DNA of 64,000 nt, from contig CAWCZS010000001.1 in NCBI GenBank assembly GCA_963800175.1, forward strand, positions 71,490 to 135,489. Direction: 5' to 3'. Positions 17,538-34,228 of this stretch are shown one piece after another. The notes beneath the pieces were generated by a model that was given only the letters and a program-made list of their open reading frames with translations, was not told the origin of the DNA and did not search any database. The DNA is from Candidatus Dormiibacterota bacterium. GTDB lineage: Bacteria > Chloroflexota > Dormibacteria > Aeolococcales > Aeolococcaceae. The stretch's first letter is position 1. The number at the start of each line of letters is the position of its first letter. The position numbers and the translations under genes are program-made.

Positions 17538-18317
17538 TTACGCAGCCACGATCTCGAGCATCGCGGCGTGCCATGACGGTGTCCCCGCGAGGATGTCGCC
17601 ACTGATGAAGACCGCTTCGGGGTCGCCGCTCCAGTCGGTCACCACCCCACCGGCCTCGCGCACCAGCAGCGCGCCCGCCGCAATGTCCCAGAGGCCGAGG
17701 CCGAGCTCGAAGTAGCCGTCGAATGCGCCCGCGCCGACGTAAGCGAGGTCGAGGCTCGCGGCGCCGGCACGGCGAAGATCCTCGAAACGCTGCAGTGCAG
17801 CGGTCATCACCGGCAGATACCGCGGCAAACGCTCCTTGTGGCGAAAGGGAAATCCCGTGGCCACGACGCCGGCTCCCTGATGTGTCGAGACGGACATGCG
17901 GCGTCCTTCGCGATCAAAGGCGCCCTGACCTTCGGCCGCGCTCCATGTCTCGCCGAGCAGGGGGGCGGCAACGGCGCCGACGACCGGCCGGCCCTCCTCC
18001 ACGAGCGCGACGCTCACGCCGACGACGGGGAAACCGCGCAGGAAGTTGGTGGTCCCGTCAACCGGGTCGATCACCCACATGCGGTTGGCGCGCAACCCTC
18101 CGGATTCTTCCGCAAGGATTGCGATATCCGGGGCGCCTTCGCGAAGAACCTCGATCGCGGCCTGTTCAGCCGAGCGATCGACATCGGTGACGTAGTCGCC
18201 GGGGCTCTTGACCTCGGTGGTCAGCGTTCCAGGGCGAGCATGGCTCCGCGCAACCAGCGTACCCGCCGCTGCGGTGGCAGCGACGGCAAGCTCACGCAGA
18301 GTTTCGCGATCGTGCAC
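17538..18317 (-). CDS. suhB: Inositol monophosphatase family protein
   Basis: DYVTDVD, AEE, WVIDPVDGTTNF, WDIAAG; GTG 18317 (the upstream ORF extension is a repeat shadow). Confidence 0.9.
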   Translation of the reverse strand: MHDRETLRELAVAATAAAGTLVARSHARPGTLTTEVKSPGDYVTDVDRSAEQAAIEVLREGAPDIAILAEESGGLRANRMWVIDPVDGTTNFLRGFPVVGVSVALVEEGRPVVGAVAAPLLGETWSAAEGQGAFDREGRRMSVSTHQGAGVVATGFPFRHKERLPRYLPVMTAALQRFEDLRRAGAASLDLAYVGAGAFDGYFELGLGLWDIAAGALLVREAGGVVTDWSGDPEAVFISGDILAGTPSWHAAMLEIVAA

Positions 18318-21300
18318 CGGTTGAGGGTACGCGCCGCGGCTGTGCGGGCTTGCGCGGGACCGGAGTTGCTTTAGCCGGGGCTCGTTTCGCCGGGGTTCGT
18401 TTCGCCGGAGCAGCCTTCGCCGGGGTTCGTCTCGCGGGAGCAGCCTTCGCCGGGGTCCGTCTCGCCGGAGCAGCCTTCGCCGGGGTGCGTTTCGCCGGAG
18501 CAGCCTTCGCCGGGGTGCGTTTCGCCGGAGCAGCCTTCGCCGGGGTCCGTCTCGCGGGAGCAACCTTAGCCGGGGTTCGTTTCGCCAGGGCAACCTTCGC
18601 CGGGGTCCGTTTCGTCGGAGCCACCCTCGCCGGGGTCCGTTTCGTCGGAGCCACCCTCGCCGGGGTCCGTTTCGCTACGGGCCGTTTCGCCGGGGTTCGT
18701 TTCGCCACGGCAACCTTCGCCGGGGTCCGTTTCGCTACGGGTCGTTTCGCCGGGGTTCGTTTCGCCAGGGCAACCTTCGCAGGCGTCCGTTTCGTCGGAG
18801 CCACCCTCGCCGGGGTCCGTTTCGCTGGGGTCCGTTTCGCTGGGGTTCGTTTCGCCGCGGCAGCCTTCGCGGGCGTCGGTTTCGCCGGGGTTCGTTTCGC
18901 CAGGGCAACCTTCGCAGGCGTCCGTTTCGTCGGAGCCACCCTCGCCGGGGTCCGTTTCGCTGGGGTTCGTTTCGCCGCGGCAGCCTTCGCGGGCGTCGGT
19001 TTCGCCGGGGTTCGCTTCGCCAGGGCAACCTTCGCAGGCGTCCGTTTCGCTACGGGTCGTTTCGCCGGGGTTCGTTTCGCTGCGACTACCTTCGCCGGGC
19101 CGGCTTTGGCCCGAGTTGCCTTCGTGGGAGTTACCTTCGCCCTGGCTACCTTCGCGGGTGCTGCCTTGGCCCGGACTACCTTCGATGCAGCTGCCGTCGC
19201 CCGGGTTACCTTCGCCGGCGCGGTCTTTGCCGGGGCAACCTTCGCCCTAGGCAACTTCACCGGAGCACCCGCAGCCGGAGCTACCGTCACCGCGGTTACC
19301 GTCACCGGAGTTACCGCCACCGGGGCTACCTTCGCCTCGGCCGTGTTCGATGGGACCACCTGCGCCGGAGCTAGCGTCGCCGAAGCTACCTCTGCCGGAC
19401 TTGTCTTCGCCATATCTGCGTGCGCCGCGGCTACCTGCCCCGGGGTTACCGTCGCCTGAGCTGCCTTCGCCGGGACGGCCTTCGCCGGGGCGGTCGTTGC
19501 CGGGGCAACCTTCGGCCGAGTTACCGCCACCGGAGCTACCTTCGCCCCGGCCGCGTTCGGTGGGACCATCTGGCGCCGAAGCTACCTCTGCCGGACCTGT
19601 CTGCGCCGTATCTGCGTGCGTCGGGGCGACCTGCGCCGGGATTACCGTCACTGGAGCTGGCGTCGCCGGAGGTGCCTCCGGCGGGATGAGATTGACCACG
19701 GATGCCTTCACCGGAGCCACCTTCGCCGGGGTTCGTTTCGCCCGGGCGACCTTCGCCGGGCCTATCTTCAACGGGGCTGCCTCGACCAAAGCCGTATGCG
19801 CACGAGCTTTCTTCGCCGGATCGAGCGCTGTCACCGCTGCCTTCGCCGACGCTCCGTTCGTTGAGGCGACCGCCGCCGGCGCTGTCTTCGCGCGGACTCC
19901 GTTCGGTGGGCTTGCCTGCGCCGGAGTTACCGTCGGTAGCACCCGTGCCGCCGGGGCTAGCGGCGGCGGGGCGACCTCCGCCGGCGATACCGCAGTCGGA
20001 GTGATGATCGCCGGCGCTACCGCCGGCGGCGCCGCCTTCGCTGGCGCTCCGTTCGGTGGGGCTATCTGCGCCGGGGTTACCGCCGCCGGGAGGGTCACCG
20101 GGGCTAGCGGCGGCGGGGCGACCCCCGCCGTCGTTGCCGCATCCGGAGTGAAGGTCACCGGCGCTACAGCCGCCGGCGCTGTCTTCGCCGGTGCTCCGTT
20201 CGGTGAGAATACCTGCGGCGGAGCTACCGCAGCAGGAGTGAAGGTCACCGGAGCCACCTTCGCTGGCGCTCCGTTCGGCGGAGCTACCGGCGCCGGGGTT
20301 ACCGCCGCCGGAGTGAAAGTCGCTGGCCATGGCGCCAAAGGCGGTGCCTTCGCTGCGGCTCCGTGCGGTGGGGCTACCTGCGGCGGAACTACCGCAGCAG
20401 GAGTGAAGGTCACCGGAGCCACCTTCGCCGGCGCTCCGTTCGGCGGAGCTACGGGCGCCGGGGTTACCGCCGCCGGAGTGAAAGTCGCTGGCCATGGCGC
20501 CAACGGCGGTGCCTTCGCTGGCGCTCCGTTGGGTGCGGCTACGTGCGCCGGAGCTACCGCATCCGGAGTTGCGGTCACCGTGGACGCCTTCGCCCCAACG
20601 CCGTTCGGCGGGGCTACGTGCGCCGAGGCGAGCGTCACCGGAGTTACGGCCGCCGGGGCTACCGCCACCGGAGCTGCTTTCGCCACGACTGCCTCCGCCG
20701 GCTTGGCTCGGCCGTACACCGCAGGGTCCAACCCGCCCTTGCGGAGCAGCGCCTCCATGGCCTCGGTGTCGCATGGCGGAGCCAGGTGGTATCCCTGGGC
20801 CATGGCGCATCCCAGCTGATTGAGGCGCTTGACCTGGAGCGGCAGCTCAACCCCTTCGGCGACCAGCGCGAGGTGCATCGCTTCAGCGTGGCGCACGACT
20901 GTCCGCGCCAGCTCGCCGCTCGAGTTCGGATCCCCGAGCTCAGCGACAAGTGGCCGCGCGATTTTGAGGATGTCGATGGGAAGGCGGCGCAGGTACGCGA
21001 GCGATGTGTACCCGGTGCCGACATCGTCGATCGCCACGTGAGCACCCGCGCGCTGTATCCCGTCGAACGTCGAGATCGCACGGTGGAGATCCTCGAGCAC
21101 GACGTTCTCAGAGAACTCCAGAATCAGGCAGGAAGGGTCGACGCCCACTCGGGCGAGGCATCGCGTGACCAGGTCGACGACCGAACCGCTCTTGAGCCCT
21201 CCAGCGGAGACGTTGACAGACATCGCCAGCTCCGGAGTGGCCGGGTATGACGCCTGCCAGCGTTTGAGCTGATCGCAGGCCGCGCGCATCACGTACTCCT

Positions 21301-22627
21301 CGATCCGATCGATCAGGCCGTACTCCAGAGCCACGGGCAGGAAGTTGAGCGGTGCGAGGAGCCCGCGCACGGGATGCTGCCAGCGGACGAGCGCTTCCGC
21401 GCCGAGGATGATCCCGGTGCGCAACTCGACGATCGGCTGGTAGTGGACGACGAGCTCTCCCTTGTTGAGCGCCGCTTCGAGTTCCGCGGCAACGTCCGCG
21501 TCCGTCGAGCCGGCCGTCGAGCCGCCGTGGATTCGGTACGTGCTGGAGCCCGCCTCGCGCGCTTCCTTTGCTGCGGCGGTCGCCCGTCTAAGGAGGGCCG
21601 ATGCCGAGGTGTCGTCGGCCTTGGCGCATGCGAGACCGACAGAGGCGGTGATCGACACGCTCACTCCCTCAGTGGATACGGGCGCCGCCAGGGCCTCGAC
21701 GACTCGCTGGGCGATCAACTCGGCCTCACGGGGATGCAGCACTTCGGGGAGCAGCAGTGCGAACTCGTCGCCACCGAGCCGGGCGGCCATATCGGTCCGG
21801 CGCAGGCACTCGTGCAATCTGTGAGCGACCTCGACGAGGACGGCGTCACCCGCGGCGCGGCCGTGTTTGGCGTTGATGCTCCGGAAGTCCTCGAGGTCGA
21901 CCGAGACGACGCTCACAACGTAGCGCTCCGGGTCGCATTCGAGAAGCGCGCGCTCCATGCGGTCGAAGAAGAGGGCACGGTTGGCGAGTTGTGTGAGCGG
22001 ATCGTGGAACGCGCGGTCGGCCAGCTCGCTCTGGAGCGCGGCGAGACGTACCAACCCGTCGTGCAGACGGCTCCGTTCGATCGTCAACGCGACCTGATTC
22101 GCCAGCTCCTGAAGTGGCTCGTCGTTGGCGCGAGATTCAGGGCTGTCCGAAGCAAGCATCCCGAGCGCCAGGTAACCGACCGTGCGCGACCCATGCCGGA
22201 GGGTCACCGCGAGTCCGCGGGATACGGCGAGACGCGCGGAGAGCCTGGTGACCCACGGGTCGGACGCCGCCTCGGCGATGTGGACGACACCGAAGATCGG
22301 CGGCCTGAGCTTGACGTCGTCATCCTCGAGATCGCTCGAGCGCATCACGTCAACCGGCTCGCCGGCGCGGACGGTCGTCCGGAAGCCGGCGCCGGTGCCG
22401 GCGTCGGGAAACAGCGTCAGCTCGGCGCAGTCGGCTCCGAAACGGACGCTCGCGCGCCGCAGCAACTCGACGGACGCGAAATCGAGGTCACGGGCTTCGA
22501 GGAGCGCCTGCGTGGTCTCCAGGAGGAATCCGAGCCGCGTCTTCTCACGGCGCACGACCATCCAGGACGCACCGGCAGCCGCAAGAACGACGATCAAGAC
22601 CGCGAGGACGGCCAGCCAGGTGGCCAT
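18292..22627 (-). CDS. Membrane-anchored GAF-GGDEF-EAL protein with very long Pro/Ala-rich and Lys/Arg-rich (histone H1-like) C-terminal tail; one frameshift near 19572
   Basis: ATG 22627, N-terminal TM, RRTD I-site, RLGGDEF, AEALVRW, DDVGTG, AEGVE; PNGAPAK-type repeats continue in the same frame, then KRTPA repeats in ORF 18292-19569. Confidence 0.8.
18370..19110. repeat. 15-bp-period coding tandem repeat ([KR]RTPA pentapeptides on the minus strand)
   Basis: Recurrent cgccggggt(t/c/g)cgttt units; 24 [KR]RTPA pentapeptides counted by eye, alternating with KVALA/KAAPA/RVAPT/KRPVA. Confidence 0.95.
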
Positions 22628-22629
22628 CG

Positions 22630-25230
22630 TTAGCCGATCAACCGGAGCGGCACGGGCTTCTCCTGGGGGTCGGCCTCGAGACGGTTGCGATCGATGCCGC
22701 CGTGCCGGAGCAACTGCTCGATCTCCACCGAGGGAAGTGGATGGCAGAGGTGATATCCCTGGCCGGCAAGGCATCCGAGGCTCAGCAGACGCGTGACCTG
22801 CGACGCCGCTTCAATCCCCTCGGCGATGACGTGAAGCTGGAGCGCATCCGCGATCGTGACGATGGCTCGAGTGAAGTCCTCCTCAGCTCCGCCGGCGAGG
22901 TCGTCGACGAACGGCTTGGCGATCTTCAGGATGTCGACGGGCAGACGGCGCAGGTAGCTCAACGACGAGTAGCCGGTGCCGAAGTCGTCGATTGCCACAC
23001 GGATTCCCGCGTTGCGCAGCGCCTCGAGCTTCGCGATCACGATCGCCGTGTCCTCGACGAACATCAACTCGGTCAGCTCGAGAATCAACGTCTGCGGCGC
23101 GAGTCCCGTCTCCTTGACGATGCCAAGCACGTCCTCGACAAACGTCGGGGAGTTCAGCTGCACCACCGAGACGTTGACGCAGACGGCGAGAGGCGTCGCC
23201 TGCAGTTTCTGGAATTGCAGTGTCGTGGCGCACGCGGTTCGGAGCACCCACTCGCCGAGTTGCATGATCAGGCCGCTCTCCTCGGCGACGCCGATGAACT
23301 CGCCGGGAGGGACGATTCCGCGCAGCGGATGGTGCCAGCGCACAAGTGCTTCGACTGCACTGATCTCACCCGTGATCAGGTTGACAACAGGCTGGTAGTG
23401 CAGGACGAACTGGCTCAACTCCATCGCGTGCTCGAGCTCGCCGCGGAGCTTGCGCCGGTGCACGACCTCGCTCTCCATGCCGGGTGCGAAGAGCACGTAC
23501 CGATTCCGGCCCGCACCCTTGGCGACGTACATCGCGACATCGGCGTGGCGCATGAGACTCGTCGCGTTTGCGTCGGAGTTGTCTGCAACTGCGATGCCGA
23601 GCGACGCGCGCACGGTCACCGACGTACCCGAGACCGTGAAAGGTTCGCTGAGCACTTGCAGGACACGCCGCGCCACGTGCTCGGCTTCGACCGCGCTGTC
23701 GACATCCTCGATGAGGAGCGCGAACTCGTCGCCGCCGAGGCGCGCTGCGGTATCGGGGCGGCGCAGGCATCCGCGAATGCGCGCCGCGACTTCGACGAGC
23801 AACGCGTCACCGGCTGCGTGGCCGAGCGTGTCGTTGACGCCTTTGAAATCGTCGATGTCGAGGAAGATGACGGCGACGCTCGCGGACCCCTCCGCGCAGC
23901 GGCGCAGCGCCTGCTCGATCTGCTGCCCGAACAGCGAGCGGTTGGCGAGATCGGTGAGCGAGTCGTGGTACGCCTGGTGGGTCAGCTGTTCCTGGAGCTC
24001 TGTCAGCCGCGCGATCGACCGCTCCATACGGCTGTTCTCGAGGATGGCGGTGGTCCGGGTCGCAAGCGTCCGGAAGAGGCGAAGGTCGCGTTCGTCGAAC
24101 GTCCGGGCATCGAGGTGACCGCCGACCATGAGGCTGCCGATCATTCGCGACTCGCCGCGGAGGAGCGCCACCATGGCCTCGCCGACACCGCGCCGATGGA
24201 GCATTTCGGAGCTGGGGTCGCCTTCGATGCCGGCGCGAACGATGACGCCTGCGGTCTCCGCCTCGAGCACATCATCGAGCTCTCCGAGCCCGAGGGCGAC
24301 CATGACTTCGTCGGGTTGTCCGTTGCGGACTATGGTGCGGAACGCCTTCTCGGACGGCTGCGACGGGAACACGGTCAGCTGGGCGATCTCCGCGTGGAAG
24401 ATGGCGCGGGCGCGATTGAGCAGCAGCACGATCGAGGGTTCGAGCTCGCGCCCGGCGAGGGCGTCCACGGCGCCGATCAGGAATTCGGCGGCCTCATGGT
24501 CGTACCGCTCCCGAACCCACGCGCGATGGGTCATCAGCACCGTGATCGTGACCACGGCGAGCGGGACGAGTGCGTAGCGATCCACGGGAATGAGCCGGAC
24601 GGCGATCAGCCCGATGCACATCGCCGCGGCTGCGGCGACGTACGCGGCACGCAGATGGTTGCCGACGTCGATCCAGCTCCCGCGATCGCGCGGCCGCAGC
24701 ACGACGCCTTCGGAGATGCCGCGCCGGAGCACCGTGATGGCTGTCGCCACGATGGCGCCGAACGCGCTGTGCCACACCGGGAGATCCGGGCTGCCCGAGA
24801 TCGTGCGGAACGCCCAGATGCCGATTCCGGCAAAGACGGCGAAGCGAACCATGTCGAGTGCCGTCTGCCAGACAGCCCACGGTCGCCGGGTCGCCGCCGC
24901 AAGGGCGGTGCCGATCACATAGCCGGAAAGCAGGGCAAGCGGCGTTGCGTGGAAGAGCCCGACGACATACGGGGCCGCGGCAAGCGTGATCGCCTGCGTG
25001 CCGCGTCGGGGACTGTCCATCGCCGCCAGACGCGCGGCGGCGAAGAATGCAATCGCGTACATCCACCAGGGGAGGCTGGGCGACAAGTACACCGGTACGG
25101 CGGCCGCGTACCAGACCCAGATGGCAACCGCGATAGCCAGCAGGACGGCGCCAACAATCCACAGTCGCGGGTCGACCCGCGTTCGCCGGTTCCACCCGGC
25201 GATCAGATGACGCTCAAGGCGCGCCATCAC
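22630..25230 (-). CDS. Multi-TM GAF-GGDEF-EAL diguanylate cyclase/phosphodiesterase
   Basis: Several TM helices; RRPD I-site; RLGGDEF; VEALVRW; DDFGTGYSS; AEGIE. Confidence 0.93.
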   Translation of the reverse strand: MMARLERHLIAGWNRRTRVDPRLWIVGAVLLAIAVAIWVWYAAAVPVYLSPSLPWWMYAIAFFAAARLAAMDSPRRGTQAITLAAAPYVVGLFHATPLALLSGYVIGTALAAATRRPWAVWQTALDMVRFAVFAGIGIWAFRTISGSPDLPVWHSAFGAIVATAITVLRRGISEGVVLRPRDRGSWIDVGNHLRAAYVAAAAAMCIGLIAVRLIPVDRYALVPLAVVTITVLMTHRAWVRERYDHEAAEFLIGAVDALAGRELEPSIVLLLNRARAIFHAEIAQLTVFPSQPSEKAFRTIVRNGQPDEVMVALGLGELDDVLEAETAGVIVRAGIEGDPSSEMLHRRGVGEAMVALLRGESRMIGSLMVGGHLDARTFDERDLRLFRTLATRTTAILENSRMERSIARLTELQEQLTHQAYHDSLTDLANRSLFGQQIEQALRRCAEGSASVAVIFLDIDDFKGVNDTLGHAAGDALLVEVAARIRGCLRRPDTAARLGGDEFALLIEDVDSAVEAEHVARRVLQVLSEPFTVSGTSVTVRASLGIAVADNSDANATSLMRHADVAMYVAKGAGRNRYVLFAPGMESEVVHRRKLRGELEHAMELSQFVLHYQPVVNLITGEISAVEALVRWHHPLRGIVPPGEFIGVAEESGLIMQLGEWVLRTACATTLQFQKLQATPLAVCVNVSVVQLNSPTFVEDVLGIVKETGLAPQTLILELTELMFVEDTAIVIAKLEALRNAGIRVAIDDFGTGYSSLSYLRRLPVDILKIAKPFVDDLAGGAEEDFTRAIVTIADALQLHVIAEGIEAASQVTRLLSLGCLAGQGYHLCHPLPSVEIEQLLRHGGIDRNRLEADPQEKPVPLRLIG

Positions 25231-32613: not shown

Positions 32614-34228
32614 TCAGATGATCGTGACGCTGATCGACGTGTAGCCCGAGACACCGTAGTTGTCGGTGACGACGACGGTCACCGTGTAACGTGTGGCGTC
32701 GCCTTCAGCCGGGTACACGTGCTCGAGCACGAAGTGATTGCCGTTCAGTGTCAACGGCATCCAGCCGGTGCCGTCGCCGTAGCGGACCGCCGCGGTGAAC
32801 GTCTTGCCGCCCGGCGCTCGCGTCGAGGAAGCTTCCGGATCCGACCCACTCGCGCATCACGTCGACGCCCCCGCCTTTGAGAGAAACCACCGGGGGCGGA
32901 TCAAGACGGGGCGTCGGTGACGGTGAGGGCGATGGTGGACGCCGTCGGCGTTGGCGACGGACGGGCGGTTGGTGACGGCTGCGGGGTGCCGGAGCCGTGC
33001 GAACCACCGCCCGAGCCGGCGTGGCTCGACCCGCCTGCTTTGCTGCCCGTGCTGGTTGGCTTCGGCGTGGAGGGTGACGGTCCGCTGACGGTGAGCACGG
33101 GAAGCGGCGTGATCGCGGTCGGCGGCAGCGTGGCTCGCGGCACGATCCCGGGGACCGCGACCGCGATCGCCGTGGTGCCGGACGCGATGGCCGCGGCGCC
33201 CCAGTTCCAGCCCGAGCGTCTGAATCCAGCCGAGCAGCGACAGCTGCGCGACCCAGGAGCCGAAGCCGACGACGCGCCAGAGGCGACCCATCGAGATGTT
33301 GAGGAACGCGCGCACGACCATCGGGTCGAACTGCGTTCCCGAGCACTTGACCAACTCCTTGCGAGCCGCGGAGACGCTGATCGACTTCCGGTACGGCCGC
33401 GCCGCGGTCATCACCTCGTAGGAGTCGGCGACGGCGACGATGCGCCCCGCAAGCGAGATCTGGTCGCCGGCCAGCCCGTGCGGGTAGCCCGTGCCGTCAT
33501 ACCGCTCGTGGTGTTGCACCACCGCCTCGCCCCACTCCCCGAGCCACGCGCGCAGCGGTCCGATGAGCCGCTCGCCCTCTTCCGGGTGGCGCCGGACCGC
33601 GCTCATCTCAACGTCGGTGAGCGCGGCCGGCTTGGTGAGAATCTCGGGAGGCACCACGAGCTTGCCGATGTCGTGGAGGAGCGACGCCCAGCGCAGGCGC
33701 GCCCGGTCGGCGTCCGACAGATGCATCTCGTCGGCGATGAGGTCCGCGAAGACCCGGACCCGCTCGGAGTGGCCGCGGGTCTGGCGGTCGTGCACGCTGA
33801 GCGCAGCGACGAGCTCGAGCACCTGCTGCATGTACGCCGTGTCGCCACCGCGAACTCCCTTGTCGCGCGCCTCCTGGAGCTGGCGCTGCAGGTCCTTCGG
33901 CTTGCCGACTTTTCTCGCGATGGCGAACCGTTTCGGCGCGCGGTCGGGGAAGAGCAGCGAGAGGTTCAGCAGCGCCGCAAGTGGGAGAAGCCGGCGGCCC
34001 GCACGCTCCAGGGCGATGATCGTGATCGAGCATCACGATCGAGGTCACGGTGAAGGAGAGGGCGGCCGGACCGAAGCCGGACCCGTGCGGCAGCAGCCGG
34101 CTGACGAACGCCCCGGCGATGATCCCCGCTGCGGCGGGGAGGACCACGACGCCGACGCGTACGAGCGCACTCAGGATGGGTCTGCGCTGCCACTGATGCT
34201 CGACGGGCGGCGTGGCCGGAAGCGGCAC
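32614..34228 (-). CDS. Membrane HD-GYP phosphodiesterase with C-terminal Pro/Thr linker and PKD-like domain (frameshifted)
   Basis: N-terminal TMs; HSERV, LLHDIGK, HHERYDGTGYP; C-terminus read by hand YGDG...HVYP...YTVTVVVTD, stop at 32614. Confidence 0.8.

Follow-up and report, generated by a model that had tools for sequence, protein, structure and literature searches.

The minus-strand stretch 22627..18292 of the 64-kb window (the whole stretch of DNA analysed, from an assembly here called G000) reads as a single gene for a bis-(3'-5')-cyclic dimeric guanosine monophosphate (c-di-GMP) turnover enzyme of ~1444 residues, in which a transmembrane helix, a GAF-type sensor, a GGDEF domain and an EAL domain are followed by a repeat tail of ~813 residues with a net charge of ~+116. 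This tail is an in-frame tandem-duplication expansion of a 32-codon basic tail, located between a conserved GGLDP motif and the C-end and confined to one clade, and a single extra base that splits the gene in the assembly is most likely an error; in this anatomy of one gene with an expanded spacer and polycationic tail we place high confidence. The best overall explanation joins to this anatomy a tether, by which the tail would hold the enzyme to a polyanion, and we give the combination a probability of roughly 0.55. The architecture is unusual, and the break is very probably an artefact. The enzyme type and polycationic tails are each already known, and what is new here is such a tail on a c-di-GMP enzyme. 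The features of the gene, all on the minus strand, are as follows.

22025..22627, minus strand: probable start ATG 22627, N-terminal hydrophobic helix (~22556-22624) and GAF-fold sensor domain (sequence, orthologue starts, AlphaFold and Foldseek)
21545..22012, minus strand: GGDEF domain with intact GGDEF motif and an RxxD site (RRTD) 5 residues upstream of it (Pfam PF00990, 134 bits, residues 255-410)
20774..21487, minus strand: EAL domain in which EAL, NVS, ExxE, DDVGTG, EGVE and QGY are present (Pfam PF00563, 204 bits, residues 430-667)
19192..20737, minus strand: weakly basic spacer of ~514 residues, rich in Pro, Ala, Val and Thr, with xPPNGxxAK repeats, beginning at the conserved GGLDP and containing the frame break (composition, repeats)
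19570..19574, minus strand: frame break, one extra C (19572/19573) after ...EVASA, with ATG 19569 read as an internal codon (junction sequence, bridging contigs, insert phase)
18388..19077, minus strand: strictly 5-periodic polycationic array with 24 [KR]RTPA units (motif count, Tandem Repeats Finder)
18292..18363, minus strand: conserved C-terminal peptide ...PVPRKPAQPRRVPSTGARSRNSA plus stop codon, the last 8 codons overlapping the next gene (orthologue C-ends)

The enzyme and the frame break

The assembled sequence presents the gene as two minus-strand open reading frames (ORFs), ORF 1 at 22774..19247 (1175 residues) and ORF 2 at 19569..18292 (425 residues). Translation of the enzyme probably starts at ATG 22627, which is Met-50 of the listed ORF 1, sits 2 nt past the stop codon of the upstream GGDEF-EAL gene and is equivalent to the methionine at which orthologues of the enzyme begin. 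Domain and motif tests assign the protein to the GGDEF-EAL group: PF00990 scores 134 bits against a cut-off of 23.8 (residues 255-410) with RLGGDEF in the translation, and PF00563 scores 204 bits against 31.3 (residues 430-667) with EALVR, NVS, EFSE, DDVGTG, EGVE and QGY, which we take to represent the catalytic and metal-binding motifs of an EAL domain. Its order of transmembrane helix, GAF, GGDEF and EAL resembles that of composite GGDEF-EAL enzymes with N-terminal sensors (DibA, DosP, PdeR-type), which are its best partial matches in NCBIfam; no NCBIfam equivalog reaches its cut-off, the best being DibA at 358 bits against 980. No GAF match was returned by Pfam for the enzyme at E <= 0.01. 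For residues 50-250, AlphaFold with a 28-row alignment gave a model whose predicted local distance difference test score (pLDDT) is 78.8, and the Foldseek matches listed for it are all GAF domains (probability 1.00, best E 1.9e-6, template modelling score ~0.55), so that the sensor region is predicted to be a GAF domain by fold only. Of the GAF-GGDEF-EAL order first proposed, the GGDEF and EAL domains are thus borne out by Pfam and the GAF domain by fold. Because there is a single N-terminal hydrophobic helix, the enzyme and its tail should both be cytoplasmic. An extracellular tail was considered and set aside, as the catalytic domains need cytoplasmic nucleotides and the tail brings no further hydrophobic segment; the 425-residue ORF contains no Ile, Phe, Trp, Tyr or Cys.

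That one gene rather than two underlies the stretch, as had been predicted, is supported by the junction, the intact relatives, the C-end and the pattern of single-base insertions in this assembly. At the junction the window reads gct tcg gcg c cag atg gtc cca, and the sister copy of the repeat reads gct tcg gcg acg cta gct ccg gcg cag gtg gtc cca; by comparison with this copy the junction is a 15-nt in-frame loss plus one extra C, in keeping with the single indel near 19572 and the resemblance to a sister repeat that the original prediction had described. It had also asked for the junction to be inspected again in reads, and in public data the contigs that bridge it (runs X1 and X3, from two studies) both (2/2) lack one base at 19572, that from X1 also carrying T>C at 19569, which turns the ATG into GTG and gives the QVVP of the sister repeat. 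Tail-less orthologues end in ...GGLDPALFARTAPAARAVTKRKPARPRRVPSSGAPARNSA and the stop (7 loci), and the frame of the KRTPA units ends in ...RKPAxPRRVPSxGAxxRNSA, which is the C-terminus of those tail-less orthologues and is found also in the relative genomes G001 and G055 and in 8 metagenome proteins. The KRTPA ORF therefore carries the enzyme's own ancestral C-end, which argues for one gene. G055 (enzyme 96% identical) holds a single intact ORF of 1482 residues on one 1.28-Mb contig, G001 (95%) is open from GGLDP to the C-end with two contig ends sharing 40 identical residues, and the metagenome matches with GGDEF and EAL domains, from JGI and ENA sources, are all intact (8/8), have 833-1349 residues and follow the same plan. 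Outside the tail, isolated 1-nt differences from G001 comprise 29 extra and 5 missing bases in the window, and those from G055 comprise 26 extra and 9 missing; among the extra sites covered by G055 (n=24), 21 are extra against G001 and G055 alike. These insertions are spread over window positions 1700-60000 (for example 7608, 7681, 9089, 29939, 30103, 57554, 58179 and 58762), and they hit open frames, long in G001, that are shortened in the window, namely those of an SF1 helicase, CopC/CopD and a DUF11 protein; only Pfam-confirmed genes were used here, the longest-open-frame test being noisy in a GC-rich genome. Marker completeness of G000 is 72% with 2 contigs, that of its peers 86-91%. The extra base at 19572/19573 is accordingly read, with little doubt, as an assembly error, the small remainder being left to a real and very recent frameshift in this strain.

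Some observations sit less easily with an error. Each bridging contig differs from the window at 5 other letters, and the contigs are therefore close relatives and not the window's own reads; rpoB of G000, taken as a control for assembly errors, is intact at 1129 residues, so that such errors are not everywhere; and a +1 frame break occurs in the tail in 3 of the 5 tailed genome assemblies (the window, G003 and G056), of which the window and G003, but not G056, can be matched to a near-identical intact sequence (for G003 the protein P0024, 98.4% identical). The phase of the insert is seen in the number of nucleotides that separate the end of the EAL domain from the start of the inositol-monophosphatase gene downstream. 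This distance, measured with tblastn anchors at every fetched locus, serves also as the measure of tail length:

21 tail-less loci: distance 97 or 94 nt; minus 97, 0 or -3; ancestral state
G003: distance 587 nt; minus 97, 490; 3n+1
G055: distance 2398 nt; minus 97, 2301; in phase
window (G000): distance 2420 nt; minus 97, 2323; 3n+1
G056: distance 2708 nt; minus 97, 2611; 3n+1

The phase of 3n+1 means a single surplus base in each of the window, G003 and G056, located differently in all three, and we read these breaks as errors. Programmed +1 frameshifting was considered for them and rejected, as the three positions do not coincide and two of the breaks have a near-identical intact form.

Were the frameshift genuine, the enzyme would end at 19247 with ~108 out-of-frame residues and a separate histone-like protein of 425 residues would start at ATG 19569. 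The assembled window does place an ATG exactly at the break, the tails of G056 and G003 are frame-broken as well, and G000 encodes elsewhere a separate 247-residue HC2-like protein with ARKTT repeats, all of which would suit two genes. However, the two ORFs would then share 323 nt, the supposed start is a GTG in a related population and the extra base is absent from both bridging contigs, the second ORF holds the enzyme's ancestral C-end, ~29 private 1-nt insertions in the window break other genes too, and the fused form is found in G055, G001 and 8 metagenome proteins, which leaves two real genes very improbable. It may also be asked whether the repeat region is a misassembly or chimera with no counterpart in cells, as the G001 contigs break within repeats, short-read contigs show back-joints in the region, and repeat numbers in short-read metagenome proteins may be collapsed. 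However, relatives with KRTPA-type tails on GGDEF-EAL homologues, which the original prediction had proposed to look for, were found with the same plan at the same locus in 5 genome assemblies and 8 metagenome proteins (JGI, ENA), and G055 crosses the region on its 1.28-Mb contig with an intact ORF, so that the repeat is no misassembly peculiar to the window and a wholesale artefact has a negligible chance of being correct. The single gene broken by an assembly error is thus preferred, and a practical warning attaches to it: the apparent frameshift is one of ~30 private single-base insertions in the 64-kb window, and split genes in this assembly are to be treated as probable errors, not biology.

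Build and origin of the repeat tail

The frame stays open from GGLDP (~20737), past the EAL domain, into ~810 codons of low-complexity sequence, which matches the ~800-residue tail originally described as running on from the EAL domain without a stop. The spacer of ~514 residues contains 37 Lys and Arg against 13 Asp and Glu, and its piece before the junction (383 residues) is 30% Ala, 21% Pro and 12.5% Val, with five PPNGxxAK motifs. In the polycationic block of ~299 residues, Lys and Arg number 92 and Asp and Glu 0, and [KR]RTPA alternates with KVALA, KAAPA, KRPVA and RVAPT units in higher-order repeats of 30, 90 and 120 nt. The 425-residue ORF contains exactly 24 [KR]RTPA units, every one at a position equal to 4 mod 5, together with 27 [ST]Px[KR] motifs and 3 acidic residues in total (positions 52, 60 and 78), so that the strict periodicity, the unit count and the near lack of acidic residues were correctly called; its last 275 residues hold 44 Lys, 41 Arg and no Asp or Glu. 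Tandem Repeats Finder gives periods of 15/30/45/90/120 nt for the basic part and 75/147/165 nt for the spacer, with a top score of 666, and all of these periods are multiples of 3, which is far from chance. Since the 120-nt higher-order copies of the array are near-identical in DNA, the array is young. From its composition the tail is presumably disordered.

The composition is also that of H1-type C-terminal tails, being rich in Lys, Ala and Pro, free of acidic residues over the last 275 positions and studded with [ST]Px[KR], the defining motif of eukaryotic H1 tails. The likeness to histone H1 that had been claimed finds support in Pfam, where HC2 (histone H1-like) scores 49.5 bits on the 425-residue ORF against a cut-off of 40; in NCBIfam, Rv3852_fam (NF050153, 62.1 bits against 100) and hist_H1_lk_Burk (NF038053, 46.5 bits against 80) stay below threshold. 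The basic Ala/Lys/Pro/Arg repeat arrays of Hc2 (PF07382), the Burkholderia H1-like family and the Rv3852 family are alike in kind; however, those proteins are small and stand-alone, and here the array forms the C-terminal part of a ~1444-residue enzyme. Rv3852 is also membrane-anchored. The matches to all three families are compositional and offer no proof of common descent. On the opposite strand, two frames are open over the tail, 18350-19459 (+) and 19350-20819 (+), of 369 and 489 residues and of FAGVRFAGAAFAG type. They exist only because GC-rich repeats lack stop codons and show no sign of being genes, and since opposite-strand frames are open too, the openness of the tail frame proves nothing by itself.

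The tail was found at this locus in 5 of 42 genomes of one Candidatus Dormibacteraeota/Dormiibacterota genus (G000 itself, G001, G055, G056 and G003), and in a quick maximum-likelihood tree of the enzyme part all tailed orthologues (10/10) fall in one clade with a support of 99 by the Shimodaira-Hasegawa-like approximate likelihood ratio test (SH-aLRT). Expanded tails range from 195 to 902 codons across lineages, and the unit type varies with lineage (KRTPAKAAPA, KRPVA, KRSPVKRVAAKVAPA, PAKAV), the plan of spacer, basic block and conserved C-end being kept across the tailed lineages. Frame, charge pattern and C-end persist in every member of the clade. Four proteins (P0009, P0013, P0015 and P0017) appear by eye to have the same enzyme part and different repeat numbers, which could reflect polymorphism or short-read collapse. 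In G055 the tail starts with ...AEAARGDGCAGGGKLRRRSPAAR... where the window and G001 have Ala/Pro/Val repeats, and this AEAARGDGCAGGGKLRRRSPAAR stretch looks like a short out-of-frame reading between two compensating indels. Whatever the function of the tail, the genus offers a natural series for the birth of a long disordered charged region from a short tail by in-frame repeat expansion (32, then 195, then 500-900 codons), with ancestral, intermediate and extreme states all present.

Possible roles of the tail

The proposed mechanism runs as follows. The N-terminal helix would hold the enzyme at the membrane, and the long proline-rich spacer would let the polycationic end reach into the cytoplasm, where it would bind a polyanion by charge, nucleoid DNA first and then RNA or polyphosphate (polyP), in the way of the KPAA tails of AlgP and PhaF and of the lysine repeats in actinobacterial topoisomerase I and HU. 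Once bound, the tail would bring the synthesis and breakdown of c-di-GMP close to the nucleoid or granules, or bias them allosterically, and the number of repeats would set the strength of the tether. Such an electrostatic tether on a long leash is the role favoured, at odds somewhat short of even, because of the net charge, the HC2 match, the partner domains of similar arrays, the parallels with AlgP and topoisomerase I, and the presence in G000 of genes for PPK1 and two PPK2, alongside one Hanks-type kinase. A bolder form of the proposal, which we consider unlikely though worth stating, is that an H1/Ki-67-like polycationic brush on a 500-residue proline-rich leash grips nucleoid DNA or polyP granules and so wires a second-messenger enzyme to a polyanion scaffold; local c-di-GMP turnover would then report on or control the state of nucleoid or granule, and repeat number would act as a tuning knob in the manner of a contingency locus.

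The company kept by similar arrays bears on these proposals. Searches used the basic block of G055 as query and scored the 8000 candidates with most words in common with it, the matches being split into longer (n=35) and shorter (n=84) proteins. The longer matches comprise 8 orthologues of this gene, 17 amphibian Ki-67 proteins and 10 others, among them topoisomerase I, IF-2 and an RNB nuclease; among the shorter ones the partner domains include HU (15), a DksA-type zinc finger (14), S1/NYN (7), CAP (7), ROK of the polyphosphate glucokinase type (3) and sigma-70 (2). GGDEF or EAL domains accompany 8 of the 35 longer matches, all of them orthologues of this gene, and 0 of the 84 shorter ones. 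Elsewhere, then, such arrays appear mostly on nucleic-acid-binding proteins, and the claim that the tail is no usual appendage of GGDEF-EAL proteins is upheld, the only GGDEF-EAL proteins among the array matches being its own orthologues. Three ROK-family proteins carry similar basic arrays (P0043, P0047 and P0110), two of them named polyphosphate glucokinase by their source; these arrays are a possible hint that such tails can target polyP.

Several well-described proteins provide parallels. According to PMC9239181, the KPAA tail of Pseudomonas AlgP binds DNA, is found on polyP granules and is required to space them; the same paper has the KPAA tails of both AlgP and PhaF bind DNA and position polyP or polyhydroxyalkanoate granules, and it calls the KPAA tail a mutational hot spot. 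The likeness lies in a Lys/Ala/Pro-rich, tandemly repeated and disordered C-terminal tail on an unrelated N-terminal module. However, AlgP and PhaF repeat the tetrapeptide KPAA (PMC9239181), whereas the present tail repeats a pentapeptide, [KR]RTPA, that contains Arg and Thr and recurs every 5 residues, the basic block measures ~300 residues against 154 and is preceded by a 500-residue spacer, and the partner module is a membrane-anchored enzyme; the sequence being of low complexity, homology with AlgP and PhaF is not claimed. Actinobacterial topoisomerase I and HU (HupB/HupS), HU being the commonest partner of similar arrays (15 of the 84 shorter matches), likewise combine a folded domain with a C-terminal tail of polycationic low-complexity sequence, and lysine repeats are described as stabilizing the topoisomerase I-DNA complex (PMC5714199). 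However, their folded domain acts on DNA, and the one here acts on a nucleotide second messenger. Among GGDEF/EAL families, an 800-residue C-terminal low-complexity polycationic tail was seen only here in the array and literature searches. Because its unit differs, its NCBIfam scores lie below cut-off and its sequence is of low complexity, the tail is set apart from the AlgP/PhaF, Hc2, Rv3852 and HU-tail groups; it may work like them and belongs to none of them.

A further parallel is amphibian Ki-67, whose AKRSPAKASP unit resembles the AKRTPAKAAP of the present array, with 52-54% identity over ~400 residues. Xenopus laevis Ki-67 (P0001) has a decapeptide array of AKRSPAKASP/AKRSPAKVTP at residues ~420-880. 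Ki-67 differs in that it is nuclear, eukaryotic and equipped with FHA and Ki-67 repeat domains, and its likeness to the present array is one of convergent low complexity and not of homology. The protein is charged, brush-like and heavily phosphorylated, and its near-identical array is one of the points that would suit a tail acting in cis or on partners other than the nucleoid. Under that heading the tail might serve c-di-GMP signalling as a scaffold that self-associates or forms condensates, might through its Arg/Lys-rich region inhibit the enzyme or bind c-di-GMP, might bind anionic membrane lipids, or might be a multi-site Ser/Thr-phosphorylation switch working on the 27 [ST]Px[KR] motifs, for which a Hanks-type kinase is at hand in G000. 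However, the sequence points to no specific partner among these, we know of no bacterial Hanks-type kinase that is proline-directed, and similar arrays mostly accompany nucleic-acid-binding domains; taken jointly, these roles are improbable.

Other findings tell against a selected tether. The tail is absent from 37 of the 42 genus genomes, and the enzyme therefore works without it. The seed tail of the tail-less orthologues already consists of a PA-rich part followed by a basic part, and the two-block plan could simply have been inherited from it. The ratio of nonsynonymous to synonymous substitution rates (dN/dS) between the window and G055 by the NG86 method is 0.098 in the enzyme, 0.56 in the spacer and 0.47 in the KRTPA part, misaligned repeat copies inflating dN and dS alike; the G+C content at third codon positions (GC3) falls from 0.80 in the enzyme to 0.68-0.70 in the tail, where the rare codons GTA and AAA are frequent. 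Codon variation among the KRTPA units was not used as a test of selection, units picked by motif being biased and the higher-order copies near-identical in DNA. Contigs of the RNA run X4 cover only 19300-19424 and 19452-19481 and give no evidence of transcription. From the dN/dS, the low GC3 and the GTA/AAA codons, the tail is judged young and loosely constrained, and it may have little or no selected function. This is at odds with the original view of the locus as a candidate for an undescribed system: the tail is better described as a young, fast-changing expansion of a 32-codon tail that was there before, lacking in most of the genus and evolving at a dN/dS of ~0.5 against 0.1.

With constraint so relaxed, near-neutral runaway expansion stays a serious rival, and we consider it a real possibility, if short of a probable one. 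It holds that replication slippage, together with unequal recombination, enlarged a disordered C-terminal tail that an ordinary GGDEF-EAL protein could tolerate, with no selected role for the tail beyond keeping the conserved C-end in frame. The dN/dS values, the atypical codon usage, the near-identity of the higher-order copies, the PA-rich then basic seed tail and the many genomes without a tail would all follow from it, as would the differences among lineages in length (195-902 codons) and unit (KRTPAKAAPA against KRSPVKRVAAKVAPA) and the varying repeat number, by eye, of P0009, P0013, P0015 and P0017. However, no member of the tailed clade (n=10) has reverted or fallen below 195 codons; in 10 independent intact sequences, frame and C-end have survived heavy indel turnover over 500-800 codons; acidic residues are missing from the terminal block of the 10 long tails counted (P0019 has one), even though their units differ; dN/dS is below 1; and a tail of +90 to +118 would seem unlikely to be inert in a cell. 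The polyanion tether is thus still preferred as the role of the tail. Polycationic C-terminal tails have been described for proteins already engaged with nucleic acids or storage granules, and are not known for c-di-GMP enzymes. Should this one tether its enzyme to DNA, RNA or polyP, c-di-GMP signalling would be physically and directly linked to the organization of nucleoid or granules. The literature searched, with subscription journals and supplements outside its coverage, contained no report of a GGDEF/EAL protein with an H1-like or lysine-rich disordered tail, and nothing on Dormibacterota, to our knowledge a phylum known only from metagenomes, together with c-di-GMP or histone-like proteins.

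Neighbouring genes and basic tails elsewhere

Two genes flank the enzyme on the same strand.

22630..25230, minus strand: paralogous GGDEF-EAL gene of 866 residues with a multi-transmembrane N-terminus, directly upstream (Pfam GGDEF 169 bits, EAL 221 bits, GAF marginal)
17538..18317, minus strand: inositol monophosphatase-family gene, start probably GTG 18317 (Pfam PF00459, 201 bits; G001 and G003 orthologues of 259 residues with equivalent start)

The pair of GGDEF-EAL genes is conserved in G001, G003, G055 and G056. The start listed for the inositol-monophosphatase ORF, TTG 18593, is probably an over-extension into the repeats in another frame. With its start at GTG ~18317, the gene shares the final 8 codons of the enzyme, and this overlap may in part account for the conservation of the enzyme's C-end at the DNA level. 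Nothing in the neighbourhood (inositol monophosphatase, FabI, a ketoacyl synthase, BacA, DUF72 and an HD_5 protein) points to a partner of the tail. The HD_5/HD-domain protein at 32860-34032 (-), with 136 bits, is possibly an HD-GYP-type c-di-GMP phosphodiesterase and would then be the third c-di-GMP-related gene within 15 kb. The sequence occurs at small shares in soil and peat runs, which were not used for naming a habitat.

Basic low-complexity tails recur in the genome of G000. Lys/Ala/Pro-rich C-terminal tails are present on ribosomal protein S20 (G000:C2:541270-541779, L118) and on an SRPBCC (polyketide cyclase-like) protein (G000:C2:173551-174414, L117). The 247-residue stand-alone protein mentioned above, encoded outside the window at G000:C1:245001-245741 (-) (L116), carries a 5-periodic ARKTT/AKRAT basic array, matches HC2 with 65.9 bits and is a candidate histone-like nucleoid protein of the organism.

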